A DNA stretch of 64,000 bases from a phage: the sequence record PX880099.1; one strand, written 5' to 3'. Shown piece after piece: positions 42,853 to 56,413 of this stretch. The notes below the pieces were generated by a model that worked only from the letters and a program-made list of their open reading frames with translations, made no database searches and had not been told where the DNA came from. Each line of letters opens with the position of its first letter. The stretch's first letter is position 1. Made by a program: the position numbers and the translations under genes.

Positions 42853-43209
42853 ATGAAAAAACTAATCTTAGCCACATTGCTGGCTACCGTAAGCTTCACC
42901 ACTTACGCTCAAAAATTTGTAGCAGTTAAAACAGATATTGGTAAAGATGTTGTGATCACAGGCAACAAGTTTTACTATACACCTGGGAATGGTGTTCTAG
43001 AAGAGTGTAAAGATGTTGAGGCATATACGGGAAAAGAAGATAACACGGAACGTCCTTTTTATTCGATTATAGCTACTTGCAAAAATGAAATAGTAGCTAT
43101 TAAACAATACAAAGATGCCCCTGGAGGAGAATACTTATTAGTCAAGAATATTAAGAGTGAAAAAACTGCAAAGTTTACAGTAATTATTTTAAAAGGAGAA
43201 ACGTTCTAA
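42853..43209 (+). CDS. secreted protein (signal peptide)
   Basis: Start set at ATG after SD GGAGGGAAG; MKKLILATLLATVSFTTYA signal peptide. Confidence 0.5.
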   Translation: MKKLILATLLATVSFTTYAQKFVAVKTDIGKDVVITGNKFYYTPGNGVLEECKDVEAYTGKEDNTERPFYSIIATCKNEIVAIKQYKDAPGGEYLLVKNIKSEKTAKFTVIILKGETF

Positions 43210-44348
43210 TGAAATACACTATTTTTGGAGATGTAGCTGTTGTAAATAAGGAATATGGCGTTGAAGCTAATAAACTTCCTGCTGGAGTTTGGGTTGTCAA
43301 CTGCGATCCGCACGGTAACTACTCTTTAGTGCGTGGTGAAAGTTTCTCTCTTCCGAACACTCTTTATGGGGAAACTAAAGATCGCGCCGCACATGTTATT
43401 AAAACATTTGCTCGTCGTAGTAAAGAAGGTAAAAATACTGGGGTGTTACTGACAGGGACAAAAGGCAGTGGTAAGACGATGTTAGCTAAACTTATTAGCA
43501 TGTCTCTAATGTCCACAGAAGGTTTAGGTATTCCAACCATTTTGGTTACACAGCCTTACACAGATGCTGGCTTCTTAGAATTTATGAGTAAAATTACAGA
43601 TCGTGCTGTTGTTTTATTTGACGAATTTGATAAAGTGTACGCTAAGAAAGAAGATCAGGAAGCACTGTTGACCTTGTTGGATGGAACAGGAAGTGGGAAT
43701 AAACTTTACATCCTCACTAAAAATAGTGGTTATATCTCGGAATATTTTGTAAACCGTCCTAGTCGTATCTACTACAGTTTCAATTACGATAAACTGTCTA
43801 GTGAAACTATGTTAGATTACTTGGATAAGAACTTGGTAAATAAAAAGCACGTAGATAACTTCCAACGTTTATGGGATGTTAGCACAGAGTTGTCTTTCGA
43901 TGTTATTCAAGGCATTGTAGAAGAATTGAATTTCTATCCAAAAATGACTTTTAAAGAATGTCTTGAAATGATGGGTATTTCTTTAGGGAACGATGCTAAA
44001 TGGAATGTGGCTTCTATCGTAGCTAATGGCAAAACCTTGAAGGTGAATTGGATCAATAACTGGCACGACTTCACCCCTACTAAGTTTTTGTCGGGCGCTT
44101 GTTCCCTGAACATCTATCTACAAAGTTTGAAAGATGATGAAGTGGAAGCAATGGAAACCAACAGTTATGTTATCCTGGATGAAGATGGTGATCCACATAT
44201 TGATCTATGTGCAACGGCTGATGGTCTAACTTGTGATCTGATTGAAGGTGGTAAGATTCTGGTTATGAGCACTACACCAGGAAACACTTTGCGAGTGGTG
44301 CTGGAGCCTGTAACACAACGTTCCACTACACTTGGTAGCGTGTTCTAA
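43209..44348 (+). CDS. AAA+ family ATPase
   Basis: Walker A LLTGTKGSGKT; Walker B VVLFDEFDK. Confidence 0.65.
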   Translation: MKYTIFGDVAVVNKEYGVEANKLPAGVWVVNCDPHGNYSLVRGESFSLPNTLYGETKDRAAHVIKTFARRSKEGKNTGVLLTGTKGSGKTMLAKLISMSLMSTEGLGIPTILVTQPYTDAGFLEFMSKITDRAVVLFDEFDKVYAKKEDQEALLTLLDGTGSGNKLYILTKNSGYISEYFVNRPSRIYYSFNYDKLSSETMLDYLDKNLVNKKHVDNFQRLWDVSTELSFDVIQGIVEELNFYPKMTFKECLEMMGISLGNDAKWNVASIVANGKTLKVNWINNWHDFTPTKFLSGACSLNIYLQSLKDDEVEAMETNSYVILDEDGDPHIDLCATADGLTCDLIEGGKILVMSTTPGNTLRVVLEPVTQRSTTLGSVF

Positions 44349-44438: not shown

Positions 44439-45899
44439 GTGCCAAAAATAGTCACTTGGGAACAATATAAAACAGATATAAAACAAGCTTATCAAGGTAA
44501 GTCTTGGACTGTTGTAGATTATATTGAGCCGTGGAACGGCAATAAAACTAAACTTAGATGCATCTGTGCTCTGCATGGAGAATGGAAAACAACAAGCATA
44601 AATACCGCTAAACTAGGGAGGGGTTGTCCAGAATGCGGTAGGGAGATTATAAGTAAAGCAGTATCTATAAACAAATCAAAAACCTGGGAGCAATATAAAG
44701 AAGAAGTGCAAACCACTTACAATCAGGCAGGTAAGTTTTGGACTGTTACAGGATGGCACGGAGAATGGAAAGGATGGAATACTAAACTGGTTTGTTGTTG
44801 TGCTTTACATGGGGAGTGGAGGTCTACTTCTATATCTTCTGCGAAAAACGGGAGTGGATGCAGGAAGTGTATGGGAGAAGCAAACAGAGAAAGAACATCG
44901 ATTGCATGGGAGCAATATAAAGAAGAAGTAGAAGAAGCTTATAAAGAAAAACCCTGGATTGTTAGAGGCTATGTGGAACCGTGGAACGGTTCCCGCACTA
45001 AGTTGATTTGTGAGTGTAAGGTTCATGGTCAATGGTGCACTACCACTGTAAACAGTGCTAAACAAGGGACTGGATGCTACAGTTGTCAAAGAGAAATGAC
45101 GAAACAAAGGAATACAATGGAGGATAAACAACATGTTGAAGATTTTATAAAAGCTTGTCCTGATAATGTAGAGCGTAAATATTATCGTAGCGATAGAGTA
45201 GATAGATTAGGTCGTCAGGTTTACTGGATTGTAGAATGTCCTATATGTGCAGAGGATGATTATTGTAAAGAAGGCTTATGCGATAATAAATTTGAGATGA
45301 AGATGAGTCATTTGAAAAGGGGTGGCCTTCCTTGCCGTTGTTCTAAATATTATCATTACACTCCTGAACAATGGGCCTACCGTATGACCAAAGCTTGCCA
45401 GGAACGAGGGGATCAATTTATAGGATTCATTGATAAGGTAAGCAATAACAGCAAGTTTAAATATCTATGTAGGGAGCATGGAGAGCAAACGATCACACCT
45501 ACCGATTATCTCAATGGGAAAGGTTGTCCAGGCTGTAAGAACAGAAATATGCAAGAATTTTACATCAATATTATTCTTGATGAGTACGGAGAAGACACGG
45601 GAGCTTACAAGTTGGGGATTGCAAAGGACAGTGATATCAGGATCAAAGGGCAGAATGCAAACAACAATTACTCTATGCGCCGTATAGCATTGTTCGATCT
45701 GCCGTCCTACCAAGCTTGCAGGGCGTTAGAGAGTAAGCTAAAGTCTAAGACTGATCAGATTCTACCGTCTATTGGCTGTGTAGAACGCTTGCACATGAAA
45801 GATGGTCATAGTGAAACCTTCCTGCGCGAGGATTTGGCTATCGTCTTAAGTGCTATCAACCAAGCAGGTGGAATAATGAGAGAGGAGGAAACATGTTAG
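44439..45899 (+). CDS. Cys-rich protein with three tandem zinc-ribbon-like repeats
   Basis: GTG start after G-rich SD; module W.G..TKL.C.C..HGEW.T.S......G.GC..C repeated three times, then a Cys/His-rich C-terminal domain. Confidence 0.55.
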   Translation: MPKIVTWEQYKTDIKQAYQGKSWTVVDYIEPWNGNKTKLRCICALHGEWKTTSINTAKLGRGCPECGREIISKAVSINKSKTWEQYKEEVQTTYNQAGKFWTVTGWHGEWKGWNTKLVCCCALHGEWRSTSISSAKNGSGCRKCMGEANRERTSIAWEQYKEEVEEAYKEKPWIVRGYVEPWNGSRTKLICECKVHGQWCTTTVNSAKQGTGCYSCQREMTKQRNTMEDKQHVEDFIKACPDNVERKYYRSDRVDRLGRQVYWIVECPICAEDDYCKEGLCDNKFEMKMSHLKRGGLPCRCSKYYHYTPEQWAYRMTKACQERGDQFIGFIDKVSNNSKFKYLCREHGEQTITPTDYLNGKGCPGCKNRNMQEFYINIILDEYGEDTGAYKLGIAKDSDIRIKGQNANNNYSMRRIALFDLPSYQACRALESKLKSKTDQILPSIGCVERLHMKDGHSETFLREDLAIVLSAINQAGGIMREEETC

Positions 45900-46271: not shown

Positions 46272-46451
46272 ATGGCACGTTTAGCAGATCATGAAATCTT
46301 TAAACCTATTCTGAACCACTATGATGAACTTAAAGCAGTGTTGGATTGTTATAGAGAGGATGAAGAACGTTTGGAAGTCAATCTTAAGATAGTTCTGATG
46401 AAAGCTTTTCAAGACGGGCAAGCTAAAGTTTTAGAAGGCATGAAAAAATGA
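46272..46451 (+). CDS. hypothetical small protein
   Basis: Start set at ATG after SD AAAGGAGA. Confidence 0.45.
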   Translation: MARLADHEIFKPILNHYDELKAVLDCYREDEERLEVNLKIVLMKAFQDGQAKVLEGMKK

Positions 46452-46990
46452 GAATAACTGATGAATATGTATTCTTCTTTTCACATAAAGATGTGTTTAG
46501 TAATTGGTATATTGCACCCTTTACAGAAACTGAACCAGGTTACAATGAGACTTTCTGTTGTGTTGAGCAATATATGATGTGGCGTAAGGCTTTGCTGTTC
46601 AAGGATCATGCGATTGCAGCAGCTATCCTTGATCACTCAACTATACGTGACAACGAGAGGAAACAAGCATACTACAAACGTATGGGTCGAGCGGTATCTG
46701 GTTTTAATAATGATATGTGGGAAGAGAACCGTGAGCGTATTGTTATGCGAGGCTTATGCTTGAAATATGTACAGAATCCAGATTTGTATGCAGACTTACA
46801 CCTTTACCAATACAAAACGTTTGTTGAAGCAAATCCTTACGATAAGGTTTACGGTATTGGAATGGGAATGTATGAACCAGGGGTGCTAAACCCTGCTACC
46901 TGGAAAGGGCAGAATCTTTTAGGCAAATATCATAATAAACTGATCGAAATACTTTTCCCAGACAAAATACCGCAAAGACGATATTTGTGA
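46448..46990 (+). CDS. NADAR-family (YbiA-like, DUF1768) protein
   Basis: FFFSHKDVFSNWY..FCCVEQYMMWRKA..RKQAYYKRMGR..YGIGMG resembles the NADAR/YbiA domain. Confidence 0.6.
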   Translation: MRITDEYVFFFSHKDVFSNWYIAPFTETEPGYNETFCCVEQYMMWRKALLFKDHAIAAAILDHSTIRDNERKQAYYKRMGRAVSGFNNDMWEENRERIVMRGLCLKYVQNPDLYADLHLYQYKTFVEANPYDKVYGIGMGMYEPGVLNPATWKGQNLLGKYHNKLIEILFPDKIPQRRYL

Positions 46991-47042
46991 TATTTTAACT
47001 TTTTTCATTTTTAGAACAAAGGTGTCACTTTGTAGCACAGAA

Positions 47043-47078
47043 ATAAGGCTCCTACAGCACCGTAGAGAGCCTGTTATT
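47043..47078 (+). terminator. rho-independent terminator
   Basis: GGCTCCTAC-agcacc-GTAGAGAGCC hairpin followed by TGTTATTTTG. Confidence 0.55.
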
Positions 47079-47234
47079 TTGTCCTATACAAACCCTTGTC
47101 TTTTTCAGTTTGCATCACTAGGATTCGATCTGAGTGGGTTCCTGAAGGTTTACCAATAAGATTAAAGGTTATATCAAATTCCCACTATCTTTTATCTCAA
47201 AAATCCCTCAAATTATTTAAACTTTTTAAGAATT

Positions 47235-47420
47235 TACAAAAGTGAAAGTTGAAAACCAAAATTTAAAGTTTAGGAAAATTATCTTAAAATGTTAGATACA
47301 AAACAAAACTCAAAAGTCAAGGAAAATTTTAAAAATTTTGCGCGCCCACAGTATTTAAAGTTTTTTTGCTTTTACAAAAATGAAAGTACAAAAGCAAAAT
47401 TTAAAGTTTACAAAAATTTT
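47235..47420. repeat. two copies of a ~46-bp AT-rich direct repeat
   Basis: TACAAAAgtGAAAGTtgaAAAccAAAATTTAAAGTTTAggAAAATT at 47235-47280 repeated with few changes at 47374-47420. Confidence 0.6.
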
Positions 47421-47461
47421 TATGCAGGTGAAAATGAGAAGAGTTCTCATATGGAAATGCA

Positions 47462-47480
47462 AATGATAATGATTCGCATT
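47462..47480. promoter_or_regulatory. Fur-box-like palindrome
   Basis: TGATAATgATTcgCA versus 7-1-7 consensus TGATAATnATTATCA; flanked by palindromic AAATGC..GCATTT. Confidence 0.3.
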
Positions 47481-47519
47481 TAAGTTTATAAATGAGATTG
47501 ATTCTTATTTAATAAGGTA

Positions 47520-47538
47520 AATGACAATCATTCTCATT
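47520..47538. promoter_or_regulatory. Fur-box-like palindrome
   Basis: TGAcAATcATTcTCA, two mismatches to 7-1-7 consensus. Confidence 0.3.
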
Positions 47539-47798
47539 TAGAGAATGACGCGCAGGGGCGGTGTTTGTCTCGCGCTCCCGTGTCCACTCGCCATGTAATA
47601 AGAATAACAGATCCAGCCAGGAAAGCAAGCGATTATTTTATCTTTACATTTCTTTACAAATATATAGCACCCAGCCTACCGGCGATCAACCTTCCAACCA
47701 GTGCCCCCTGGTATGTTAGCCCCGCCTTTACGCCGTGGGGTGGCGCTTCCTCTTCTGTATGTAAAACAGTATAAGCCCGATCCCTGGGCTTGTCAAGA

Positions 47799-48065
47799 TT
47801 ATTTTTTGTTTTCTTGCCAGGATAGGACACCTAACCAAAAATACATATCGCCCCGCGCCCCTGGTGGTATCTTGCTTTCCCCGCCGCCACTGCAAGCCCA
47901 TAGATAACCATTTGCGAACGTATCAAAATGATCTATCTCTTCCACCTTATGATCGCCCAGGTTGAGAACGGTTTCAACCTTTAAGCCCGTTGCGCTTGCT
48001 ACCTGGTGCACCGTGCCGCCTTGCCAGCCCAATGAGTGCATAAGGTGTAATGTAGTATTTGTCAT
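47799..48065 (-). CDS. hypothetical protein on opposite strand in GC-richer island
   Basis: 88 aa ORF; only - strand gene between two + strand blocks; real C-terminus may be shorter. Confidence 0.4.
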   Translation of the reverse strand: MTNTTLHLMHSLGWQGGTVHQVASATGLKVETVLNLGDHKVEEIDHFDTFANGYLWACSGGGESKIPPGARGDMYFWLGVLSWQENKK

Positions 48066-48173
48066 GATATCGCCCTTTCTTTGTTGTGCGCCCTGGTTGG
48101 CGCGGTAGAAAGATAATAGCCCTTTTCTTTATATATAGCAAGCAAAAAGAAAATAAAAAAGATTGAAAAATGG

Positions 48174-48231
48174 TTGACGTTAACCAGGCGGCGGCGTAGT
48201 ATTCATCTTGTAGGGCGGCAATGGTGCCGCT
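48174..48231 (+). promoter_or_regulatory. promoter plus 5' stem-loop cassette 1
   Basis: TTGACG-17 bp-TAGTAT, then GGCGGCA-atgg-TGCCGCT hairpin at predicted transcript 5' end. Confidence 0.6.
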
Positions 48232-48251
48232 CACTATTTGGAGTTAAGATC

Positions 48252-48449
48252 ATGGCAACATTGCACATTGTGGCGAAAGCTGGACAAATCAACGTAGTGG
48301 TAAACGGTTTTACTGAGTTCAGTCACCCCCAGGATGATCATGAAACGGTTTTATCTTTCATTGATTCCCTGTTAGAAATGGGAGTCATTACAGAAGACCA
48401 GCACGCTACAAAATGCAAGCGCGTTAATCAAATTGTAGGAATAGAATAA
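48252..48449 (+). CDS. hypothetical small protein (cassette gene)
   Basis: Start set at ATG after GGAG; 65 aa. Confidence 0.5.
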   Translation: MATLHIVAKAGQINVVVNGFTEFSHPQDDHETVLSFIDSLLEMGVITEDQHATKCKRVNQIVGIE

Positions 48450-48456
48450 AAAGTAT

Positions 48457-48516
48457 TGACAACAAACAACAACCTGATAAGATGTATCACATAGGGCGGC
48501 GGAATGGTCCACCGCT
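48457..48516 (+). promoter_or_regulatory. promoter plus 5' stem-loop cassette 2
   Basis: TTGACA, -10-like TAAGAT/ATAGAT, GTATCAC, then GGCGGCGGA-atgg-TCCACCGCT hairpin. Confidence 0.6.
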
Positions 48517-48540
48517 CACAACAGAAGAGAGATTATCATC

Positions 48541-48813
48541 ATGGCATCATATAGCGCAACAATGATCGTAGCTGGCACCACTGGTAAACCTATGCGCGGT
48601 GGCGGATCTTTCGCTAATATCAATATTGACGGGCGTTTATCCCTGGACGCAGCGATCACCGTGGCGCGGGAAACATTTAAGAAAGAATGTAAATTCAATA
48701 AACAAGATTATCTCGGTTTTGCTATTGAAAAAACCGCGCGCTTTGTTGATTATAAAAGCCCGAAAATGGTTGACACTACATTAAAAGCGCAAGATGTAGC
48801 GTTTTTGCTTTAA
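48541..48813 (+). CDS. hypothetical small protein (cassette gene)
   Basis: 90 aa; purine-rich SD before ATG. Confidence 0.55.
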   Translation: MASYSATMIVAGTTGKPMRGGGSFANINIDGRLSLDAAITVARETFKKECKFNKQDYLGFAIEKTARFVDYKSPKMVDTTLKAQDVAFLL

Positions 48814-48816
48814 GGC

Positions 48817-48872
48817 TTGACATTAACGAATAATTTGTTAATATGTTACATAAAGCGGGAATAGTTCCCGCT
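48817..48872 (+). promoter_or_regulatory. promoter plus 5' stem-loop cassette 3
   Basis: TTGACA-16 bp-TAATAT then AGCGGGAA-tag-TTCCCGCT hairpin. Confidence 0.55.
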
Positions 48873-48889
48873 ATTTGTAAGGTGGTAGA

Positions 48890-49147
48890 ATGTTTTACAT
48901 CAAATTAAAAGGTCACGTGATCGCGTTCAAAGATAACGCTTTTTACAGATTAGCAAAATATGCGTTAATACATCCCCACTATGTTTATATAAGGGGGCGT
49001 GATGAAATAAATATCTTTGATCAAACAACATGCGAGAACATCGAGATCCGCAAGGTTGGCGTACGTGATTATCGTACATCTTTCTACCCTTGCAAGGATT
49101 CAGCAAGTCTTTTTAAAGTATGCCAATTGTTGAAAAAAGGTGGTTAA
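48890..49147 (+). CDS. hypothetical small protein (cassette gene)
   Basis: 85 aa; SD AAGGTGG before ATG. Confidence 0.55.
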   Translation: MFYIKLKGHVIAFKDNAFYRLAKYALIHPHYVYIRGRDEINIFDQTTCENIEIRKVGVRDYRTSFYPCKDSASLFKVCQLLKKGG

Positions 49148-49148
49148 T

Positions 49149-49706
49149 ATGGGCCGCGAATATGTGATCCAGTCTTGGGTAAAACATGAAGCAGATGATC
49201 CGCGCATCATTCCCGATCATCTTATCGATGAATCCACGGGATATAGTGGTGAGCAAATAGGTAACAGATTAGCACGTAGTAACGGCAACGTAAAAGCGCG
49301 TTATGTGCGCCCTGGCTGGCTGGCAAATGGTAACGCTGATTTATCCAGTGCGGAAGATGCGAGCGACGGCGCGAAAGATAATCCTTTGTACAAAGTTGAT
49401 CCAGCTTTTCGTGTCCTGGATGAATACCCCAGCAAGATAGCGGCGCTCGATCAGGCCCTGGAAAGTAAGCGCATCACCTGGACCGCTTACAACATGGCAA
49501 AAAACGTACTTGATGGTAAATTGATTCAAGCTGAAAGAAAATTAGCCAAAATTGCAGCCATAGCCCAGGAGGAAGACGAGGAGACAACGGAAGAGGAAGA
49601 GTACGAAGAGATCCCGCCGTTGTTGTGTGTTGATGCTTTTCCTGATTATCAGCCGACAGAGGAAGAAAAAAGGATCGCACTAGAAAACTTTGAAAATAGT
49701 CTTTGA
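49149..49706 (+). CDS. hypothetical protein with acidic C-terminal region (second gene of cassette 3 operon)
   Basis: Start set at ATG after SD AAAGGTGG; no promoter between it and the upstream gene. Confidence 0.55.
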   Translation: MGREYVIQSWVKHEADDPRIIPDHLIDESTGYSGEQIGNRLARSNGNVKARYVRPGWLANGNADLSSAEDASDGAKDNPLYKVDPAFRVLDEYPSKIAALDQALESKRITWTAYNMAKNVLDGKLIQAERKLAKIAAIAQEEDEETTEEEEYEEIPPLLCVDAFPDYQPTEEEKRIALENFENSL

Positions 49707-49761
49707 CATATCGCCGCCACTGGCATAATATTTACCACGTAGGGCGGCAATGGTGCCGCTC
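49703..49761 (+). promoter_or_regulatory. promoter plus 5' stem-loop cassette 4
   Basis: TTGACA-17 bp-TAATAT-TTACCAC then GGCGGCA-atgg-TGCCGCT hairpin. Confidence 0.6.
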
Positions 49762-49788
49762 ATAGTGAAATTATGCAAGAGGCTTACA

Positions 49789-49884
49789 ATGATTAATAAA
49801 GAAAATAGCTTGACGGTTGGAACGATTAACGCTATCATTCTAGCCGTTCCATTTTGGGTTGTAGTAGCGGCTATTATTTTCTAA
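49789..49884 (+). CDS. possible 31-aa hydrophobic peptide
   Basis: ATG after AAGAGG; single predicted TM segment; only ORF between cassettes 4 and 5. Confidence 0.3.
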   Translation: MINKENSLTVGTINAIILAVPFWVVVAAIIF

Positions 49885-49892
49885 AAATATTC

Positions 49893-49952
49893 TTGACAAC
49901 GTTTTTTAATCTGATAAGATGTATCACGTAGGGCGGCGGAATACTTCCCCGC
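49893..49952 (+). promoter_or_regulatory. promoter plus 5' stem-loop cassette 5
   Basis: TTGACA-16 bp-TAAGAT-GTATCAC then GGCGGCGGAA-tac-TTCCCCGCC hairpin with one bulge. Confidence 0.6.
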
Positions 49953-49974
49953 CAAAACAAAAAAGGGTAACACA

Positions 49975-50337
49975 ATGAGCAAGCAAATCAATACTATCAT
50001 GTTTAATCTGGTATCTTTCCGCGATGATATGAAAAATTTACCACGTGAAACGGTTGATATTCATGTTTCAGCTTATCGCGCCCTTATTGACATGTTACCG
50101 CTAAAACGTGATCAACATGCCGCTAATATGATGCTTAATGCTATGCTTAAAAAGATGATTCAAACGGATCTTACTCTGGCGTATGAGTATCAAGGGCGCT
50201 TATATGCGACTTACAACAAAGCGGTACCTGGTCTGGGAAGTACCGAAGAGTTGCACGGCTTAAACCTGGATCAAAACACTTGGGATAGTATGCGCCGCGT
50301 TATGGTATGGGCCGAAAGCGGTAAAATTTACGAATAA
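49975..50337 (+). CDS. hypothetical protein (cassette gene)
   Basis: 120 aa; SD AAAGGG before ATG. Confidence 0.55.
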   Translation: MSKQINTIMFNLVSFRDDMKNLPRETVDIHVSAYRALIDMLPLKRDQHAANMMLNAMLKKMIQTDLTLAYEYQGRLYATYNKAVPGLGSTEELHGLNLDQNTWDSMRRVMVWAESGKIYE

Positions 50338-50343
50338 AAACGG

Positions 50344-50401
50344 TTGACACTGTTTAAACTTCTGGTATAGTTTATCACGTAGGGCGGCAATGGTGCCGCC
50401 A
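50344..50401 (+). promoter_or_regulatory. promoter plus 5' stem-loop cassette 6
   Basis: TTGACA-16 bp-TATAGT-TTATCAC then GGCGGCA-atgg-TGCCGCC perfect hairpin. Confidence 0.65.
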
Positions 50402-50420
50402 ACAATAAAAGGTTAACATC

Positions 50421-50600
50421 ATGGCTATCATTGCAAAAACTGAGATTATAGGTTTAGATTCGATCCTCCTGGCTTATGAGGAAACTTTAAAAATGTATGT
50501 AGTGACCTATGGTGATTATGTGCGTGAATACGAATACATTGATCTTGCTTTCGAATGTTACATTCGCCAGGTCAATAAAGCCTATAATGATTATCGTTAA
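50421..50600 (+). CDS. hypothetical small protein (59 aa, below ORF-track cutoff)
   Basis: ATG after AAAAGG; only ORF between cassettes 6 and 7. Confidence 0.45.
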   Translation: MAIIAKTEIIGLDSILLAYEETLKMYVVTYGDYVREYEYIDLAFECYIRQVNKAYNDYR

Positions 50601-50619
50601 AAGTTTTAGTCTTATACTA

Positions 50620-50670
50620 TTGACAATGAGTGATAGTATAAGCATAATAACTTTTATCGGGAATACTTCC
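50620..50670 (+). promoter_or_regulatory. promoter plus short 5' stem-loop cassette 7
   Basis: TTGACA-17 bp-CATAAT then GGGAA-tac-TTCCC hairpin. Confidence 0.5.
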
Positions 50671-50697
50671 CACTAACCAAAAAGAGAGAGTGACACC

Positions 50698-51063
50698 ATG
50701 GCTATTAATATCAATGTTTCCGCTTATGCTACCCTGGCTAACACGGCTAAAATTGAATTATCCAGCATTGAGGCGGTGCATATTAGCGCCCGTCGCTGGT
50801 TTCAACAGTCCTACGGTAACACATATTTTTCTTTAATGGTTGACGTTGAGATCGGCGGTAAACTGATCGAGGTGGTTAACGTTCCGTTTCAATATGGCTA
50901 TGGTGATCATTTTGATACCGTCGCCCTGGAAGAATTTAGCAAGGTTATCAACCTTGAGGGCAAGGAATTTTCACGCGGCGCGTATCTTTCCCGTTTTTGC
51001 CGTGACAATGGGATCACTGTATACAGTCATGCAAGCGATGTAAAACGTAAAAAAGATTTATAA
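50698..51063 (+). CDS. hypothetical protein (cassette gene)
   Basis: 121 aa; SD GAGAGAG before ATG. Confidence 0.55.
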   Translation: MAININVSAYATLANTAKIELSSIEAVHISARRWFQQSYGNTYFSLMVDVEIGGKLIEVVNVPFQYGYGDHFDTVALEEFSKVINLEGKEFSRGAYLSRFCRDNGITVYSHASDVKRKKDL

Positions 51064-51069
51064 AAAGCA

Positions 51070-51129
51070 TTGACAGCACGAATAAAAAGAGTAAACTGTA
51101 TTACATAGAGAGCGGGAATAGTTCCCGCC
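51070..51129 (+). promoter_or_regulatory. promoter plus 5' stem-loop cassette 8
   Basis: TTGACA-16 bp-TAAACT-GTATTAC then GCGGGAA-tag-TTCCCGC hairpin. Confidence 0.6.
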
Positions 51130-51152
51130 TCATTCAAAGAGAGATTATCATC

Positions 51153-51392
51153 ATGGCTATTACTAAAACTTACAACGGTCACAAAAACAAAACTCACTGG
51201 AATGTAAGCCTTTGGATTAATAACGACGAATCATTATATCGGTTGGCGAAAGAATTTATCGCCGCTAATACTAATCGTAATGATGCTGCCCGTGATATGA
51301 TGTTATTCCTGGAACAAACTGGACAAGATAAAACTCCAGACGGTTTCAAGTATAGCACTACAGCGATCCGCGCCGCGATGGTTGGAATGTAA
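51153..51392 (+). CDS. hypothetical small protein (cassette gene)
   Basis: 79 aa; SD AGAGAG before ATG. Confidence 0.55.
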   Translation: MAITKTYNGHKNKTHWNVSLWINNDESLYRLAKEFIAANTNRNDAARDMMLFLEQTGQDKTPDGFKYSTTAIRAAMVGM

Positions 51393-51401
51393 TAAAAACA
51401 G

Positions 51402-51461
51402 TTGACAACGTTTAAAATTAGTGTAAGATGTATCACATAGGGCGGGAAGTGGTTTCCCGCC
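51402..51461 (+). promoter_or_regulatory. promoter plus 5' stem-loop cassette 9
   Basis: TTGACA-16 bp-TAAGAT-GTATCAC then GGCGGGAA-gtggt-TTCCCGCC hairpin. Confidence 0.6.
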
Positions 51462-51483
51462 AACAACAGAGAGATTAAAGATT

Positions 51484-51711
51484 ATGGCTATCAATATTGT
51501 TCGCGTATCCGGCACCGTTGGCACTTCCCAGGTTATTGCAGTTGTAACAAACAAAAAGATTAATGATGTATGTGAGATCTTGAATAAGTGGGCTATTGCT
51601 AATTTTGGGGAATATGCAAGCGTCGAGTACATCGAATCCTACCAGGTGCCAACCATCAGCCTGACCGATCTCAACGTTGATCGCCTGTTATGCCTGGATG
51701 AATTAATCTGA
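51484..51711 (+). CDS. hypothetical small protein (cassette gene)
   Basis: 75 aa; SD GAGAG before ATG. Confidence 0.55.
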   Translation: MAINIVRVSGTVGTSQVIAVVTNKKINDVCEILNKWAIANFGEYASVEYIESYQVPTISLTDLNVDRLLCLDELI

Positions 51712-51720
51712 AAAAGATTG

Positions 51721-51777
51721 TTGACACGGGAAAGAAAAAGAGTAAACTGTATTACGTAGGGCGGCAATAGTGCCGCT
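51721..51777 (+). promoter_or_regulatory. promoter plus 5' stem-loop cassette 10
   Basis: TTGACA-16 bp-TAAACT-GTATTAC then GGCGGCA-atag-TGCCGCT hairpin. Confidence 0.6.
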
Positions 51778-51801
51778 CACAACAGAAGAGAGATTATCAC
51801 G

Positions 51802-52014
51802 ATGGCTAATATCCGCACACTGTTAAAAAATGCAAGTCAAGTTTTATTTTCTGATCACGATCATTTTAATAAAGATATTACAGGCGTGAAGAATATCAAA
51901 GATGTAAAAAGTGTTATGGGTATATATTGCAATGTTAAACGTGTTGGAACGTTCGGTGATAAAGTATTGTACCAATCAGGTGATTACAATTTTACTTTGA
52001 CGATTATTTCATAA
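51802..52014 (+). CDS. hypothetical small protein (cassette gene)
   Basis: 70 aa; SD AGAGAG before ATG. Confidence 0.55.
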   Translation: MANIRTLLKNASQVLFSDHDHFNKDITGVKNIKDVKSVMGIYCNVKRVGTFGDKVLYQSGDYNFTLTIIS

Positions 52015-52019
52015 AACGC

Positions 52020-52081
52020 TTGCAATACTGCAAAAATAAAGTAAACTGTATTACATCAAGGCGGCGGAATGGTCCACCGCC
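52020..52081 (+). promoter_or_regulatory. promoter plus 5' stem-loop cassette 11
   Basis: TTGCAA-16 bp-TAAACT-GTATTAC then GGCGGCGGA-atgg-TCCACCGCC hairpin. Confidence 0.55.
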
Positions 52082-52105
52082 TAACAAAGAGAAGAGGAAA
52101 ATATT

Positions 52106-52273
52106 ATGATCACTTTCGCTACCCGTGAAGCCGCTCGCAACGTTGCACGTAAAGTTAACGCCGCCAACCTGGGCGCTACGCTTAAAGCCCCTGTAAAAGA
52201 TGAATCAGGAAAATGGATCTTCCCTGGTCTACGTCATGCTGACAAGTTAGGTACTTTAAGCCTTAAAAAATAA
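52106..52273 (+). CDS. hypothetical small basic protein (55 aa, below ORF-track cutoff)
   Basis: ATG after SD GAAGAGGAAA; N-terminus MITFA shared with 52526-52747. Confidence 0.45.
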   Translation: MITFATREAARNVARKVNAANLGATLKAPVKDESGKWIFPGLRHADKLGTLSLKK

Positions 52274-52276
52274 TCG

Positions 52277-52314
52277 TTGACTTTTCGTTATAGCGCCTTA
52301 TAATGGGCGCTATA
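52277..52314 (+). promoter_or_regulatory. promoter with palindrome straddling the -10 (variant cassette 12)
   Basis: TTGACT-16 bp-TATAAT with inverted repeat TATAGCGCC..GGCGCTATA enclosing the -10 hexamer. Confidence 0.5.
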
Positions 52315-52350
52315 GAGAAGAGAAACCAGTCACAACAGAGAGAAAATATC

Positions 52351-52512
52351 ATGACCAATAAAGAAAAAGCCATCATTAAAGCACATTATCCACATCTAAC
52401 ATTACGTTTTAAAGCCGATGGATCTGTTATGGCCTCCAGTGGGCGCGGGTATGCTTACGGTTTACTTTACACCGCACAACAAGCGCAAGATCATTTAAAC
52501 GCAGTAAAATAA
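52351..52512 (+). CDS. hypothetical small protein (cassette gene)
   Basis: Start set at ATG after AGAGAGAA (MTNKEK); 53 aa. Confidence 0.45.
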   Translation: MTNKEKAIIKAHYPHLTLRFKADGSVMASSGRGYAYGLLYTAQQAQDHLNAVK

Positions 52513-52525
52513 CAAGGAAACCATT

Positions 52526-52747
52526 ATGATCACTTTCGCTATTGTCGCCGTTGTTGCTGGTCAAGTTTACGTAAATGAGACATTTACTACAGAAGACAAG
52601 GCAGCAGGAGATATAACCGCCGTTTACAATGAGTGCAAGGCAGTAGAAAGGATGTTAGCGCCTTGTATGCTAATGAGTGAACGCCAGGACGGAATAACAG
52701 TATTTACTAACATTGGAACAGGGTACCAAATGGTAGTAACAAAATAA
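52526..52747 (+). CDS. hypothetical small protein (second gene of cassette 12 operon)
   Basis: 73 aa; SD AAGGAAA before ATG; hydrophobic N-terminus. Confidence 0.5.
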   Translation: MITFAIVAVVAGQVYVNETFTTEDKAAGDITAVYNECKAVERMLAPCMLMSERQDGITVFTNIGTGYQMVVTK

Positions 52748-52750
52748 AGC

Positions 52751-52808
52751 TTGACACCGATTTAATTTTTAGTAAACTGTTACAGGTAGGGCGGGAATAG
52801 TTCCCGCT
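52751..52808 (+). promoter_or_regulatory. promoter plus 5' stem-loop cassette 13
   Basis: TTGACA-16 bp-TAAACT then GCGGGAA-tag-TTCCCGC hairpin. Confidence 0.6.
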
Positions 52809-52826
52809 CAAAAAGAGAGAAAGACC

Positions 52827-53180
52827 ATGAAAGCACAAAATGCAATTAAAGAGTACATCCTTGCCGCTATCGATTTTAATGATTACGGTATTACAACCGA
52901 AAAAGAGAAGATCGCGGAATTGATGCGCCGTTTTAATTCCGAGTACTGGTACCCTGATAACCAATCACGTTTTAATTATAGTATTGTTAAAGCACTTGCA
53001 TCATGGTTACAAGGTTTGCCATCAGATATCAATATCGCTTTCGAATATTGGGAAATTGATCGCTTGTTAACATCCTGGGGATACATTAAAGAGAATAGCA
53101 GCGATGATAAAATCCAACGAGAAAGGGAAAATTATTGGCTTTATATTGCAGGCGTGATCCTTGCTTGCTCTTATGAATGA
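52827..53180 (+). CDS. hypothetical protein (cassette gene)
   Basis: 117 aa; SD AGAGAGAAAG before ATG. Confidence 0.55.
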   Translation: MKAQNAIKEYILAAIDFNDYGITTEKEKIAELMRRFNSEYWYPDNQSRFNYSIVKALASWLQGLPSDINIAFEYWEIDRLLTSWGYIKENSSDDKIQRERENYWLYIAGVILACSYE

Positions 53181-53186
53181 TAAACC

Positions 53187-53240
53187 TTGACAATTTTACA
53201 AAACAGTTTAAATTAACAATATAGCGGCAATGGTGCCGCT
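53187..53240 (+). promoter_or_regulatory. promoter plus 5' stem-loop cassette 14
   Basis: TTGACA, weak -10, then AGCGGCA-atgg-TGCCGCT hairpin. Confidence 0.5.
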
Positions 53241-53259
53241 CATATGAAGAGGAAACAAA

Positions 53260-53406
53260 ATGAATACATCTAATCGCGCAGAAAAAATTCAATCTTCCAA
53301 GATCCGCAAAGCCTGGAACGAGGAAGTGATCCGCAAAGGCGACAAGCGTAATAAAACAAAGCGCGGGAAGAGTGACAAATATAATTGGATGGATTTAGAG
53401 GATTAA
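53260..53406 (+). CDS. hypothetical small basic protein (48 aa, below ORF-track cutoff)
   Basis: ATG after SD GAAGAGGAAA; Lys/Arg-rich. Confidence 0.4.
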   Translation: MNTSNRAEKIQSSKIRKAWNEEVIRKGDKRNKTKRGKSDKYNWMDLED

Positions 53407-53413
53407 CATAACA

Positions 53414-53441
53414 AGGGCGCATCAAGCGCCCTTTCTTTTTA
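53414..53441 (+). terminator. rho-independent terminator (module AAGGGCGCAYCAAGCGCCCTTT)
   Basis: AGGGCGC-atcaa-GCGCCCT hairpin followed by TTCTTTTT. Confidence 0.7.
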
Positions 53442-53461
53442 CATGTAGAGGATAAACAAAA

Positions 53462-53647
53462 ATGACTTTAAACGAGCTTAAAACAGCCTACAACGCAACA
53501 TTAAAAATAGCCGTGCGTTACCGTGATGCGTATGGTTTTATCGCGCAGGGCGTGATCCTGGGCTTTTCTGACGATGGTTTGATCTATGTTGATGCACATC
53601 ACAACAAGGTTAAACCTGAAAACGTCATTAGCATAAAATATCTTTAA
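53462..53647 (+). CDS. hypothetical small protein
   Basis: 61 aa; SD GAGGA before ATG; no cassette promoter directly upstream. Confidence 0.5.
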   Translation: MTLNELKTAYNATLKIAVRYRDAYGFIAQGVILGFSDDGLIYVDAHHNKVKPENVISIKYL

Positions 53648-53653
53648 AAACGG

Positions 53654-53710
53654 TTGACAGCATAACCAAGTATGATAAGATGTATCACATAGGGCGGGAA
53701 TAGTTCCCGA
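53654..53710 (+). promoter_or_regulatory. promoter plus 5' stem-loop cassette 15
   Basis: TTGACA-16 bp-TAAGAT-GTATCAC then GGGCGGGAA-tag-TTCCCGACC hairpin. Confidence 0.6.
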
Positions 53711-53732
53711 CCACATAAAAGAGAAAAACATT

Positions 53733-53945
53733 ATGACCACTATCACAACAAAACAAGAAAAAATTATTACAGACATTGCCGCAGTAGCCGCTATTGCTAT
53801 TATTGGTACCTACTATGACACCGCGCGACCTTCCTCCTTACATGAGATCGCCGCCGTTGCATCAGTTGGCGTACTGTTTTACGTTGGTAAACGCTATTTA
53901 TCACCAATGATTAACAAGCTGACACCGTGGAAAAATAAAGGTTGA
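53733..53945 (+). CDS. small membrane protein (cassette gene)
   Basis: 70 aa with two hydrophobic segments; SD AGAGAAAAA before ATG. Confidence 0.5.
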   Translation: MTTITTKQEKIITDIAAVAAIAIIGTYYDTARPSSLHEIAAVASVGVLFYVGKRYLSPMINKLTPWKNKG

Positions 53946-53997
53946 TCCTGTTTTATATTGTGTTATAGTTATCGTGTAGGGCGGCAATGGTGCCGCG
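53942..53997 (+). promoter_or_regulatory. promoter plus 5' stem-loop cassette 16
   Basis: TTGATC-16 bp-TATAGT then GGCGGCA-atgg-TGCCGCG hairpin. Confidence 0.55.
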
Positions 53998-54016
53998 CCC
54001 CTTTGAGGATGCAATC

Positions 54017-54301
54017 ATGCGTAAAGCTAACACCGTGCTAATGTTTTCCCTGATTAATAATGCCGCTTACTTGTCCAACATGACGCAGGAGGGTAACACA
54101 TTAACGGCAACATTCACCAATAAGCTTGACCGAGTGATCATAATCTCACTGAAAACAGTTAGTAAAGGCTTTTACTCGTTAGCTTATCATTGTATCACTG
54201 ACACCGACGAGACAAGCCAGGACTATAGCGCCCCTTTCCCTGAATCAATGGCACGGGAGATCATCGCCGCCGTTGTAAATGATGGTTTGTTTACTGCATA
54301 A
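54017..54301 (+). CDS. hypothetical protein (cassette gene)
   Basis: Start set at ATG after SD GAGGA (MRKANTVL); 94 aa. Confidence 0.5.
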   Translation: MRKANTVLMFSLINNAAYLSNMTQEGNTLTATFTNKLDRVIIISLKTVSKGFYSLAYHCITDTDETSQDYSAPFPESMAREIIAAVVNDGLFTA

Positions 54302-54318
54302 AATAATTCAGAAAAGGC

Positions 54319-54378
54319 TTGCAATAATTTTCAGACCGTGTATATTTAATTCATAGGGCGGCGGGAATAGTTTCCTAA
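54319..54378 (+). promoter_or_regulatory. promoter plus degenerate 5' stem-loop cassette 17
   Basis: TTGCAA-16 bp-TATATT then partially decayed GGCGGGAATAGTTTCC element. Confidence 0.4.
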
Positions 54379-54398
54379 GCAAACGAGAGGATTACACG

Positions 54399-54518
54399 AT
54401 GAGCAAGTATACAGTAGAATACACGGTAGAAAATCCGGCAGTATCCGAAGGTAAAAAGATGACATTTGCCATCAGTATAATCGCTTTCGTTATCACTATC
54501 TTATCAATCATCTTATAA
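54399..54518 (+). CDS. possible 39-aa membrane peptide
   Basis: ATG after GAGAGG; hydrophobic C-terminal half. Confidence 0.3.
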   Translation: MSKYTVEYTVENPAVSEGKKMTFAISIIAFVITILSIIL

Positions 54519-54528
54519 GGTGCGTACT

Positions 54529-54690
54529 ATGAAAACAACAGACATTATCAAAGAGATCGCCCTTGCCGCTGACGTTGAGATCGAGGAAGTGATCGCGCTC
54601 AACCTTACAGAAAACGATCTGCGCAACTATGAAGCGGAAAGCGTGAAAGCAAGCGGCGCGGTCCTGGCATATAATCCGGCTAACAAGTAA
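54529..54690 (+). CDS. hypothetical small acidic protein (53 aa, below ORF-track cutoff)
   Basis: ATG after SD AAGGTG. Confidence 0.4.
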   Translation: MKTTDIIKEIALAADVEIEEVIALNLTENDLRNYEAESVKASGAVLAYNPANK

Positions 54691-54699
54691 GGGGATAAC

Positions 54700-54810
54700 A
54701 TGAATCCAAAAGATATGCAAGCATGGAAAGGGTACGACGATCTAAGCGCCTTGCGCAATAAGTCAAGCCGTAACCTTAGACGGTTGGAAGCAAAGAAAAA
54801 GAAAAAATAG
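54700..54810 (+). CDS. possible 36-aa basic peptide
   Basis: ATG after AAGGGG; ends in a Lys run. Confidence 0.3.
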   Translation: MNPKDMQAWKGYDDLSALRNKSSRNLRRLEAKKKKK

Positions 54811-54811
54811 T

Positions 54812-54868
54812 TTGACAAGTCCGCCTAGTCTGATAATATGTATCTTGTAGGGCGGCAATGGTGCCGCT
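54812..54868 (+). promoter_or_regulatory. promoter plus 5' stem-loop cassette 18
   Basis: TTGACA-16 bp-TAATAT then GGCGGCA-atgg-TGCCGCT hairpin. Confidence 0.6.
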
Positions 54869-54888
54869 CACAAGAAGAGAGAAAAATC

Positions 54889-55173
54889 ATGAAAATCACA
54901 AAAAGCCTAACTAATTATGCAGCACGTCGCGGATTATGTTTAACCGTTGAAAACTTAGGGAAAGAAGACTTTTTGTGTTTTTGGGAGCTTGAAAATGATT
55001 GCGAGTGGATGTTTTCTTATTCTATCTGCGAAGATCAAAACGGTTGTTTGTTAACCTGGCGCGGTAATATCTATTTACCGGAAGAAATTAAAGAAGAGTT
55101 ACCAGGTACGATCATGACAGAGAGACAGCTTAAGGAAGTGATCAATTTTGTAGGGCAAAACATTAAAAAATAA
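54889..55173 (+). CDS. hypothetical protein (cassette gene)
   Basis: Start set at ATG after AGAGAGAAAAA (MKITKSL); 94 aa. Confidence 0.5.
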   Translation: MKITKSLTNYAARRGLCLTVENLGKEDFLCFWELENDCEWMFSYSICEDQNGCLLTWRGNIYLPEEIKEELPGTIMTERQLKEVINFVGQNIKK

Positions 55174-55174
55174 T

Positions 55175-55236
55175 TTGACAGTAGGCAAACAACGTAGTAA
55201 AGTTTATTACATAGAGCGGCGGAATGGTCCACCGCT
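55175..55236 (+). promoter_or_regulatory. promoter plus 5' stem-loop cassette 19
   Basis: TTGACA-17 bp-TAAAGT-TTATTAC then AGCGGCGGA-atgg-TCCACCGCT hairpin. Confidence 0.6.
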
Positions 55237-55258
55237 CACAACAGAAGAGAAACAAATC

Positions 55259-55429
55259 ATGATCCCGACTATGTTTTATGTATCGCGCAAAGGTCACAAT
55301 ATTTTTTGGTCTGAAGATTTAAATGAAGCTATGACGTTTGCCCGTGATCGTGTTGCTATCGGTGGCGTTAATATCACCGTGACCGATGAAAACGGCATTG
55401 AATACTATAACGGCGATGATGAAGAGTAA
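55259..55429 (+). CDS. hypothetical small protein (cassette gene)
   Basis: Start set at ATG after AGAGAAACAA (MIPTMFYV); 56 aa. Confidence 0.45.
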   Translation: MIPTMFYVSRKGHNIFWSEDLNEAMTFARDRVAIGGVNITVTDENGIEYYNGDDEE

Positions 55430-55436
55430 TCAACAA

Positions 55437-55455
55437 GGCGGGATTAATTCCGCCT
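55437..55455 (+). other. promoter-less intercistronic stem-loop GGCGGGA-ttaa-TTCCGCC
   Basis: Hairpin right after the stop at 55429 with no -35/-10 upstream and no T-run. Confidence 0.4.
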
Positions 55456-55473
55456 ATATTAAAGGGTAATACA

Positions 55474-55611
55474 ATGAAAACTTTCAACGCAACAGCCTCG
55501 ACAATTGGTTATATTATTACAGTGCAAGCCGTGGATCTGGTAGCAGCAGCAAACAAGATTAAAAAGATGATCCCGCCAGGTAGTGAATTTTCCGTTTGGG
55601 AAGTAAAATAA
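55474..55611 (+). CDS. hypothetical small protein (45 aa, below ORF-track cutoff)
   Basis: ATG after AAAGGG. Confidence 0.35.
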   Translation: MKTFNATASTIGYIITVQAVDLVAAANKIKKMIPPGSEFSVWEVK

Positions 55612-55614
55612 ACC

Positions 55615-55676: not shown

Positions 55677-55694
55677 ATTAATGAGGGTAGAATC

Positions 55695-56407: not shown

Positions 56408-56413
56408 AAAGTA

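Follow-up and report, generated by a model that had tools for sequence, protein, structure and literature searches.

Does the gene-free DNA between a NADAR gene and a lone reversed gene in the phage sequence record PX880099.1 hold a replication origin, a regulatory site or the traces of an insertion? We addressed this question computationally in a 64,000-nucleotide stretch of the genome, here called the window, in which this DNA lies near 47 kb. Our analysis showed that 47.05-47.80 kb is a conserved, non-coding, cis-acting hub, probably at the inner edge of a terminal block of early genes. Its parts follow a four-part order from left to right: direct repeats of ~70 nt, an array of palindromes, two leftward promoters (P2, then P1) and an RNA. 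The palindromes match the operators of the host iron repressor Fur. As to what the assembly does, we tentatively favor a composite model in which Fur would gate early leftward transcription into the repeat DNA and thereby activate an origin-like hub.

Conservation of the locus

Over the 1.4 kb around the locus, Escherichia phages of the genus Phapecoctavirus share 99.9% identity with the window, and the source of the window is a phAPEC8-like E. coli myophage of this genus (subfamily Stephanstirmvirinae). At least 80% of positions 46900-48300 is covered in 68 phage records. No annotated relative has a credible gene in the stretch from NADAR to the reversed gene, and tuntematon is the sole one to mark two "repeat_region" features there. 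Beyond these close relatives, a sensitive DNA search recognized window positions 47520-47790 at 68-78% identity in very distant phages, namely Justusliebigvirus (phi92), an unclassified Klebsiella phage of the Stephanstirmvirinae and the Vequintavirinae genera Seunavirus, Certrevirus, Mydovirus, Avunavirus and Henunavirus, in whose records the matching core is mostly unannotated. A pattern scan of IMG/VR added 23 further genuine copies of the core from uncultured relatives. The non-coding segment 47545-47798 is the best-conserved DNA of the locus and occupies the same slot across the two phage subfamilies. In our two alignments of the core (A1 and A2), the indels measure 1, 2, 4, 8 and 10 nt; since these are not multiples of three, the core is non-coding.

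As the first-pass annotation of the window had pointed out, the DNA after the NADAR terminator is AT-rich (23-27% GC at 47100-47500) and is followed by a GC-richer segment, with the GC content climbing to 47-53% at 47600-47900.

A phased array of Fur-box-like palindromes

That annotation had also singled out a perfect palindrome, ATGAGAA-gag-TTCTCAT, which we recovered at 47434-47450 as the first of four related 19-bp palindromes. These start at 47433, 47462, 47491 and 47520, at a spacing of exactly 29 bp. They are listed here with their scores in a symmetrized position weight matrix (PWM) derived from 68 phage palindromes only:

47433-47451, unstranded: Fur-box-like palindrome 1, AATGAGAAGAGTTCTCATA, PWM score 17.9
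47462-47480, unstranded: Fur-box-like palindrome 2, AATGATAATGATTCGCATT, one mismatch, PWM score 29.0, 14/19 to the classical Fur consensus
47491-47509, unstranded: Fur-box-like palindrome 3, AATGAGATTGATTCTTATT, PWM score 23.8
47520-47549, unstranded: Fur-box-like palindrome 4, AATGACAATCATTCTCATT, with the conserved flank TTAGAGAATGAC, PWM score 27.2, 15/19 to the classical consensus

Palindrome 4 is the box kept in nearly all relatives, and the 29-bp spacing recurs in CR9, POP15, KpS8, 4MG and several IMG/VR relatives. When as many as 3 mismatches are allowed, AATGAKAATNATTMTCATT is found 7 times in the window against 0.32 expected (22-fold), a count reached in 0 of 100 shuffles. The consensus of the phage palindromes, AATGAGAATCATTCTCATT, departs from the 7-1-7 Fur motif TGATAATnATTATCA only in having G for T at symmetric positions, and 4MG carries a perfect Fur sequence, AATGATAATCATTATCATT. 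Compared by hand with AATGATAATnATTATCATT, the four boxes match 13-16 of the 18 specified positions. The classical 19-mer GATAATGATAATCATTATC, at a threshold of at least 14/19, finds 19 matches in the window versus 4.1 in shuffles, and 3 in the locus versus 0.09 in local shuffles.

The reverse comparison was made by scanning the phage-derived matrix over 50 kb of E. coli K-12 (590000-639999). This region includes the fepA-fes, fepD-entS and fepB-entC divergent promoters, which are classical Fur-controlled promoters. All six of the best matches (scores 13.4-17.7) fall in these three regions, which also hold one of two matches tied at 8.5; the best scores outside them are 8.5 and 7.0, over a background with mean -34 and standard deviation 10. 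Thus, a motif model built on phage sequences alone retrieves the operators of the host. By their sequence, the palindromes are Fur boxes. Like the E. coli Fur operators, of which that of aerobactin iucA is another, they are AT-rich 19-bp palindromes (phage consensus TGAGAATcATTCTCA), and the clustering and overlap of sites recalls extended Fur operators. They differ in lying on a virulent genome, in forming groups of up to 4-5 sites with a strict 29-bp period and in standing downstream of strong promoters, with no iron gene nearby. Fur boxes belong to the textbook picture of bacterial iron regulation and are present on temperate phages upstream of cargo genes (stx1, sitABCD); in the literature searched, we found none described in virulent phages.

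A host protein is the parsimonious binder of these sites, because they occur both in phages without the 88-aa reversed gene and in unrelated T5-like phages; the former observation led us to reject the 88-aa protein as their binder. We likewise rejected RNA hairpins or terminators as their main role, since they have AT-rich arms whose pairing is disrupted in variants without compensation (box 2 has two mismatched positions). In these palindromes it is the sequence itself that is conserved, rather than the pairing. Palindrome 1 also overlaps the -10 element of a weak rightward promoter-like site, TTTACA-17-GAAAAT (47407-47435).

Tandem leftward promoters and a candidate RNA family

To the right of the array, the best-conserved segment contains the following elements:

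47768-47796, minus strand: promoter P1, TTGACA-17-TATACT, predicted start ~47761, 11/12 positions in a consensus scan
47591-47618, minus strand: promoter P2, -35 TTGCTT (47618-47613), 16-bp spacer, -10 TATTCT (47596-47591), predicted start ~47584, from alignment A2
47550-47590, minus strand: transcribed leader of P2, conserved, with the nearly invariant CGGTGTTTGTCTC (plus strand), from A1 and A2
47641-47661, unstranded: direct repeat TCTTTACA-N3-TCTTTACA with an 11-bp period, conserved in nearly all relatives (A1, A2)
47630-47761, minus strand: RNA1, a structured, purine-rich non-coding segment, from covariation counts and from RNAalifold run in both senses

In alignment A2, P1 is kept at 9-12 of 12 positions in all 31 sequences, and P2, ~165 bp downstream of it, scores 7-10 of 12 in 29 of the 31; in both, the hexamers are kept and the spacers vary. 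P1 and P2 are predicted to be tandem leftward sigma-70 promoters of strong-to-moderate quality. The P1 spacer contains the stem-loop that terminates the 88-aa gene (47773-47791). The TCTTTACA repeat lies just upstream of the P2 -35 element and might serve as an UP element or bind a factor such as a response-regulator-type protein. By eye, TTTACA direct repeats here bear a likeness to an OmpR-type site or to the 3' end of 16S rRNA.

RNA1 has 41 G and 24 C among its 132 nt and includes a nearly invariant stretch, CCGGCGATnnACCTT (plus strand), at 47680-47694. Next to it, hairpin A (47695-47715) has changed on both sides at 3 of its 6 pairs, with compensatory changes from AU to GC in 10 and 4 sequences and from AU to CG in 6. 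Two further stems, the invariant CGCC/GGCG (47731-47734 with 47742-47745) and CCCC/GGGG (47720-47723 with 47737-47740; CCAA/UUGG in the pEa55 group), could together form an H-type pseudoknot. In two covariation counts, pairing is possible in 92.8% and 92% of cells versus at most 48% and 47%, respectively, when the partners are slid, and in the first count double changes fill 25 cells versus 5.9 in shuffles, although the shuffle control overstates the significance because the sequences are related. The leftward structure from RNAalifold has two further helices rich in changes from G-U to G-C or A-U, which fit only the leftward sense, and its energy is -44.5 kcal/mol versus -37.1 kcal/mol for the opposite sense (single-sequence z-scores -2.1 and +0.3). 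The lower energy, the G-U changes and the promoter positions together favor a leftward RNA. An Rfam 15 scan of 46500-48700 with E up to 10 gave a best E of 0.67, far below the gathering scores, and no match on the core. RNA1 is thus a candidate for a new RNA family conserved across two subfamilies. For the P2 leader (47550-47590), RNAalifold found no well-supported structure.

The alignments revealed no conserved intrinsic terminator between RNA1 and the Fur array; therefore, transcripts from both promoters should run into the array. Counted from the predicted P2 start, the boxes sit at +46 to +151, with box 4 at +46 to +64; from the P1 start they sit at +223 to +328. We also considered RNA1 and RNA2 as antisense regulators of the 13 leader hairpins of the neighboring early region, and discarded this candidate since their duplex energies equal those of shuffled controls (z ~ -0.2).

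Lineage-specific direct repeats

The AT-rich DNA to the left of the array holds the repeats:

47209-47280, unstranded: iteron-like direct repeat copy 1, 72 nt, AT-rich (repeat family D2)
47297-47330, unstranded: partial middle copy, right half alone, 74% identical (repeat family D3)
47347-47418, unstranded: iteron-like direct repeat copy 3, 72 nt, 82% identical to copy 1 (family D2)

The two direct repeats of the first-pass annotation are therefore real, but their length is 72 nt rather than ~46 bp, they stand 138 bp apart, and a partial third copy accompanies them. For that annotation, absence of the repeats from close relatives would have been one part of a refutation; they are present in all of them. 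Over 212 bp, tuntematon matches the repeat segment at 100% identity, against 88-97% for the genes on either side. Tandem repeats lie directly to the left of the Fur-like array in every lineage examined. Six other lineages have 2-4 tandem copies, mostly three, of 63-72 nt at ~52-84 bp spacing (~64-76 bp in most); the exceptions in count are KP13-26, with two copies, and W70, with four 31-nt units. The repeat sequence differs by lineage: it begins with TATTTAAAGTTTTT in the Stephanstirmvirinae, with GGTTCTCGATCGA in Seuna-, Certre-, Mydo- and Avunavirus and with ACTTGAGAGG in Henunavirus and W70. Unlike the Fur boxes, which are constant across lineages, the repeats are lineage-specific and thus show the pattern expected for the sites of a co-evolving phage protein. 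Presumably, a phage protein binds the ~70-nt repeats.

The order of promoter, tandem repeats and terminator might suggest a mimic of a type III antitoxin RNA; we set this option aside, given that the units are twice the usual length and no toxin gene follows. The left, non-coding part of the locus in Vequintavirinae (4MG, L010, 969-1230; CR9, L005, 951-1230) has further short repeat sets, among them three copies of GATATTTG and TGCCACATATCTCAAAAA-type repeats, with no counterpart in the window.

Borders of the hub, early region and genome terminus

On its left, the hub is bordered by the end of the NADAR operon:

46448-46990, plus strand: NADAR gene (Pfam PF08719, E = 1.7e-34)
47046-47082, unstranded: stem-loop with T-runs on both strands, AGGCTCCTAC...GTAGAGAGCCT then GTTATTTTGT, read from the sequence

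The stem-loop terminates the rightward NADAR operon, and the annotation of phAPEC8 has a terminator at the homologous place. It probably works in both directions and would also halt leftward transcripts from P1 and P2.

On the right, 13 early-promoter cassettes follow on the plus strand at 48174-57760, the first of them, at 48174, just to the right of the locus. Each has a promoter of the type TTGACA-16/17-TAAGAT, a conserved leader hairpin ~8 nt further on (GUAGGGCGGC-AAUGG-UGCCGCUCAC) and, after it, a small gene. In this repetition of sigma-70 promoter and leader hairpin, the 13 copies recall the promoter-early-stem-loop cassettes of T4-type phages, reportedly described by Arbiol et al. in 2010. 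P1 and P2 differ from such cassettes: they lack the leader hairpin, and the conserved RNA that follows them is another one and much longer. An isolated Fur-like box, AATGAGAAAGGTAATCATC (PWM score 16.6), lies at 57410 within the early region, at the end of an open reading frame (ORF; 57124-57414).

Beyond the cassettes comes another non-coding gap, 1.5 kb long (59036-60577), in which motifs of the GATAAT/ATTATC type abound. It contains strong Fur-like boxes at 59284, 60038 and 60217, the other three of the seven matches in the window. We take the stretch that separates these two clusters of boxes (48.17-57.8 kb) to be the early region. Stephanstirmvirinae have short direct terminal repeats (PMC12210895; PMC12695924), and that of BME3 was determined as 342 bp by PhageTerm (PMC12210895). 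The start of the BME3 record maps to ~60.4 kb of the window, through 70-90% matches to this phage of another genus, and its terminal repeat carries Fur-like boxes at positions 53 and 248. By this comparison, the gap at 59036-60577 probably contains the direct terminal repeat, i.e., the physical end of the genome. Because the BME3 start maps there, the hub would lie ~12.9 kb (~8.6% of 150 kb) from the physical end, a distance that depends on the comparison across genera. We rejected the locus itself as the genome end, since the BME3 terminal repeat maps ~13 kb to its right.

A shared array in the injection-stop region of T5-like phages

The injection-stop region of T5 has been known since the 1980s. 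In our sensitive DNA search, the box array also matched T5-like siphophages. An identical palindrome, AAATGAGAATSATTCTCATTT, is present in chee24 (L015, 1040-1062 and 1390-1570) and HildyBeyeler (L016, 1470-1690 and 2026-2044), in arrays of at least 5 copies at ~29-35-bp spacing, beside DnaA boxes and GTGCGAATCCGACA repeats. Judged from their sequence, these arrays of AAATGAGAATnATTCTCATTT palindromes within direct repeats are Repeat Region 3, the injection-stop region of the terminal repeat. Davison described there the direct repeats DRC and the palindromes palE to palJ, to which no factor was assigned, and placed the calculated shear point of first-step transfer in this region (bioRxiv 10.1101/866236). 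The words "Fur" and "iron" are absent from that text.

Besides the palindrome sequence and its phased arrays, both loci have a large stretch (1-1.2 kb) of highly conserved non-coding DNA that is full of direct repeats, and both would lie ~8% of the genome from its end at the border of a host-transcribed early block (7.9% in T5; by the above mapping, 8.6% for the hub). What sets T5 apart is a terminal repeat of 10 kb, nine DRD repeats and DnaA boxes in pairs; we found no DnaA box in 46990-48174 and no DRD-like repeat in a repeat search. Conversely, the RNA core, P1 and P2 were not found in the T5-like loci examined.

The reversed gene is a variable passenger

The gene to the right of P1 and its promoter are:

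47799-48065, minus strand: 88-aa gene, full-length match to phrog_19316 (E = 2e-59), an ORF annotated in relatives
48141-48113, minus strand: promoter-like site of the 88-aa gene's own, TTGCTA-17-TATTAT, from the consensus scan

As first annotated, it stands alone on its strand, being the only credible minus-strand gene between ~40.7 and 51 kb. A homology search with its product recovered 21 homologs, all from these phages. The protein model is an all-helical orphan fold of five helices (predicted local distance difference test, pLDDT, 93.4), and neither sequence nor fold gave a significant match to a DNA-binding (helix-turn-helix) family. Seunavirus and Mydovirus have an unrelated gene of 60-63 aa in the same place (12-13% identity), and in CR9, POP15 and pEa55 the slot holds no gene. 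ETEC-TG (L018, OR786310; 540-550) has a natural 381-bp deletion that removed window positions 47707-48087 between the 12-nt direct repeats GTGCCCCCTGGT and GTGCGCCCTGGT (window 47701-47712 and 48086-48097). The deletion joins the promoter region of the 88-aa gene to hairpin A, and this promoter may substitute for P1 in that phage. The 88-aa gene is a variable passenger and not a conserved part of the locus, although it is the element annotated there.

The region is also mosaic. Relative to phi92, the core is 90% and the 88-aa gene 98% identical, while the flanks give no match; thus, core and 88-aa cassette have been exchanged between genera. In Raoultella phage Ro1 (L012, 760-1600), the core is interrupted by an HNH endonuclease gene (880-1473, minus strand), with a diverged second P1/RNA1 module (760-875) on one side and a truncated normal copy (1505-1625) on the other, an arrangement that looks like a homing event that carried donor flanks along. 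A host source for the GC-rich core was rejected, as it has no match in 5,426 E. coli genomes. A pattern scan of 185,579 bacterial genomes gave chance matches only, with the second motif in 0 of 120 among the matches listed.

Does the locus have the marks of an origin?

The first-pass annotation took iteron-like repeats next to a strand switch as typical of a replication origin or regulatory hub. The repeats and a conserved cis-acting hub are borne out; DnaA-box enrichment, a GC-skew inflection and a recognizable initiator gene were not found. Several spaced direct repeats and the adjoining AT-rich DNA at 47100-47500, both expected of an iteron-type origin, are present. As in lambda ori, pSC101 and P1 oriR, a few direct repeats are found next to AT-rich DNA with sites for a host factor, and the repeat sequence co-varies with lineage, as it would for a cognate initiator. 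The differences are that the units measure 63-72 nt here versus 17-22 bp in those origins, and that neither a recognized initiator gene nor DnaA or IHF sites are found. The only turn of the GC skew, at ~40 kb, coincides with the strand switch of transcription. The neighbors of the locus are NADAR, small proteins without known function, a CapR-domain endonuclease-like protein and an AAA ATPase; in Vequintavirinae, the neighbor is a ~275-aa protein without a family match. The literature yielded nothing relevant on transcript maps or origins of Phapecoctavirus or Vequintavirus. An origin role for the locus is possible.

Transcription-activated origins offer a second comparison. At the T7 primary origin, the tandem promoters phi1.1A/B are followed by an AT-rich stretch; T4 oriF and oriG combine a promoter and an unwinding element with an R-loop primer; and in ColE1, the folding of the structured, G-rich RNA II controls primer formation. 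The locus resembles these in having tandem promoters that point into AT-rich DNA and a transcript predicted to be structured and G-rich. It differs in that its promoters are of the host sigma-70 type, not of the phage-polymerase or middle-mode type, and in that a Fur array intervenes between promoters and AT-rich DNA.

A composite model and its alternatives

In the mechanism that we infer, host RNA polymerase would initiate at P1 (~47761) and P2 (~47584) early in infection, and a purine-rich structured RNA would be transcribed toward the Fur array. Iron-loaded Fur on the array would block or limit elongation 46-151 nt beyond the P2 start. Read-through into the AT-rich repeats would then be set by Fur occupancy, i.e., by iron status or by how far replicating phage DNA titrates Fur. 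Read-through and the G-rich RNA would activate the repeat region, most likely as a transcription-activated origin in analogy to T7, T4 oriF/oriG and ColE1.

Several observations weigh against this model. Roadblocking by Fur is, to our knowledge, not an established mechanism, and the boxes lie downstream of P1 and P2, not over the -35 and -10 elements as in classical Fur repression. DnaA boxes are no more frequent than expected by chance; the GC skew, a weak criterion in phages, has no inflection at 47 kb; a family search found no recognizable initiator gene nearby, the left neighbor included; and the T5 origins are mapped near the center of that genome (as cited in bioRxiv 10.1101/866236). ETEC-TG exists without P1, the 5' half of RNA1 and the 88-aa gene, all three of which are therefore dispensable. 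The strand of the RNA is supported by G-U statistics and promoter position only, and the variant L020 favors the opposite sense. Because a second cluster is present in the 59.0-60.6 kb gap and at the BME3 terminus, the role of the boxes is not specific to the hub. Finally, the palindromes are replaced in the IMG/VR group of L034, L046, L052 and L065 and in L039. In the L034 group, GTGATAGTT-type repeats take their place, with both promoters and the RNA core kept; the host of these phages may have a different factor.

We consider it nearly as likely as the composite model, though still doubtful, that the locus is purely transcriptional: an iron-responsive boundary and small-RNA locus with no role in replication. 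The P1 and P2 RNAs would act in trans on host or phage targets, and the array and bidirectional terminator would insulate the NADAR operon and tune transcript length by iron. The two conserved promoters, the covarying RNA with an almost invariant stretch of 15-20 nt as a possible seed, the sequence match to Fur operators and the lack of any origin hallmark in DnaA boxes or GC skew all agree with this, as does the position of the locus exactly between a rightward middle operon and the first of the 13 early cassettes. It sits less well with the missing conserved intrinsic terminator after RNA1, the lack of special complementarity of RNA1 and RNA2 to the early leaders or of a known target, and the viability of ETEC-TG without the 5' half of RNA1; it also leaves the lineage-specific 63-72-nt repeats and their 100% conservation unexplained. 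The boxes could instead be a decoy unrelated to promoters, RNA and repeats, with this array and the one near the terminus, on hundreds of replicating genome copies, titrating Fur and derepressing iron uptake for phage iron enzymes. Multicopy Fur boxes do derepress the regulon in the Fur titration assay, and such a function would suit the seven boxes close to consensus in 64 kb, which cluster in non-coding DNA, and the conservation of the boxes in two unrelated enterobacterial phage groups. Yet in many lineages the period is strictly 29 bp and box 4 keeps its place with respect to P2 and the repeats, which argues for a local architectural role, and derepression of FhuA and FepA would be counter-productive for T5-like phages that use them as receptors; we rate a decoy as quite unlikely. 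The reading of the GC-richer segment and reversed gene as a recent insertion or mobile island, with the nearby repeats and palindromes as incidental scars, is the least credible. In its favor are the phi92 comparison, 84-86% identity to Av-05 and phage 18-1-2 over 47621-47796, the endonuclease gene and duplicated module variant in Ro1 and the clean 381-bp deletion in ETEC-TG. The segment is not peculiar to the present phage, however: the core stands at the same position in every relative examined from two subfamilies, including those without the reversed gene, the locus has no integrase, transposase or terminal inverted repeats, and palindromes and repeats are conserved and phased. The suggestion of the first-pass annotation that the GC-rich island was inserted is thus not upheld, and we regard it as very improbable.

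The T5 comparison opens a different possibility, namely that the locus is the counterpart of the injection-stop region: a cis-acting nucleoprotein site ~8-9% from the end, marking the boundary of the DNA that enters or is expressed first, with Fur in the complex. The same palindrome arrays in Repeat Region 3 next to the calculated shear point speak for it, together with the short direct terminal repeats of the Stephanstirmvirinae, the placement of the hub 12.9 kb (8.6%) from the end, the fact that the DNA from hub to end consists of small early genes with host promoters, and the Fur boxes at the terminus itself. On the other side, no report of DNA entry in two steps exists for these myophages, the DnaA-box pairs and DRD repeats that define the T5 region are absent, the terminal repeat measures 342 bp and not 10 kb (BME3), the terminus mapping depends on 70-90% matches to a phage of another genus, and a cytoplasmic protein bound to DNA that is already inside would be an odd brake on entry. 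We give this counterpart a low probability. A broader version, in which Fur is an unrecognized host factor of the T5 injection-stop or early-boundary complex and of its myophage counterpart, coupling DNA entry, the early-to-middle switch or origin firing to host iron, with the myophages adding a new RNA family, strikes us as rather unlikely, if somewhat less so than the strict counterpart.

Each component of the locus belongs to a known kind, be it Fur operator, sigma-70 promoter, iteron-like repeat or structured RNA. We did not find their combination, a phased Fur-operator array in virulent phages or the sharing of such an array with the T5 injection-stop region described in the literature. 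If the identification is true, two unrelated virulent groups, the T5-like siphophages and the rV5/phAPEC8-like myophages, share a phased array for host Fur that bounds the early block. The array offers an experimental handle on what the T5 injection-stop region binds. Phages of the rV5/phAPEC8 type are widely used in phage therapy, and for them it is a handle on the control of early transcription and the start of replication.

Neighboring genes

Upstream of the NADAR gene, positions 44439-45899 (plus strand) code for a 486-aa protein with five CapR-homology repeats (PF21817; PHROG annotation endonuclease/HNH endonuclease). Its gene adjoins that of a 379-aa AAA-type ATPase (phrog_2376) at 43209-44348 (plus strand). 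The length of the CapR protein varies among close relatives, with 333 aa in tuntematon and 395 aa in phAPEC8.

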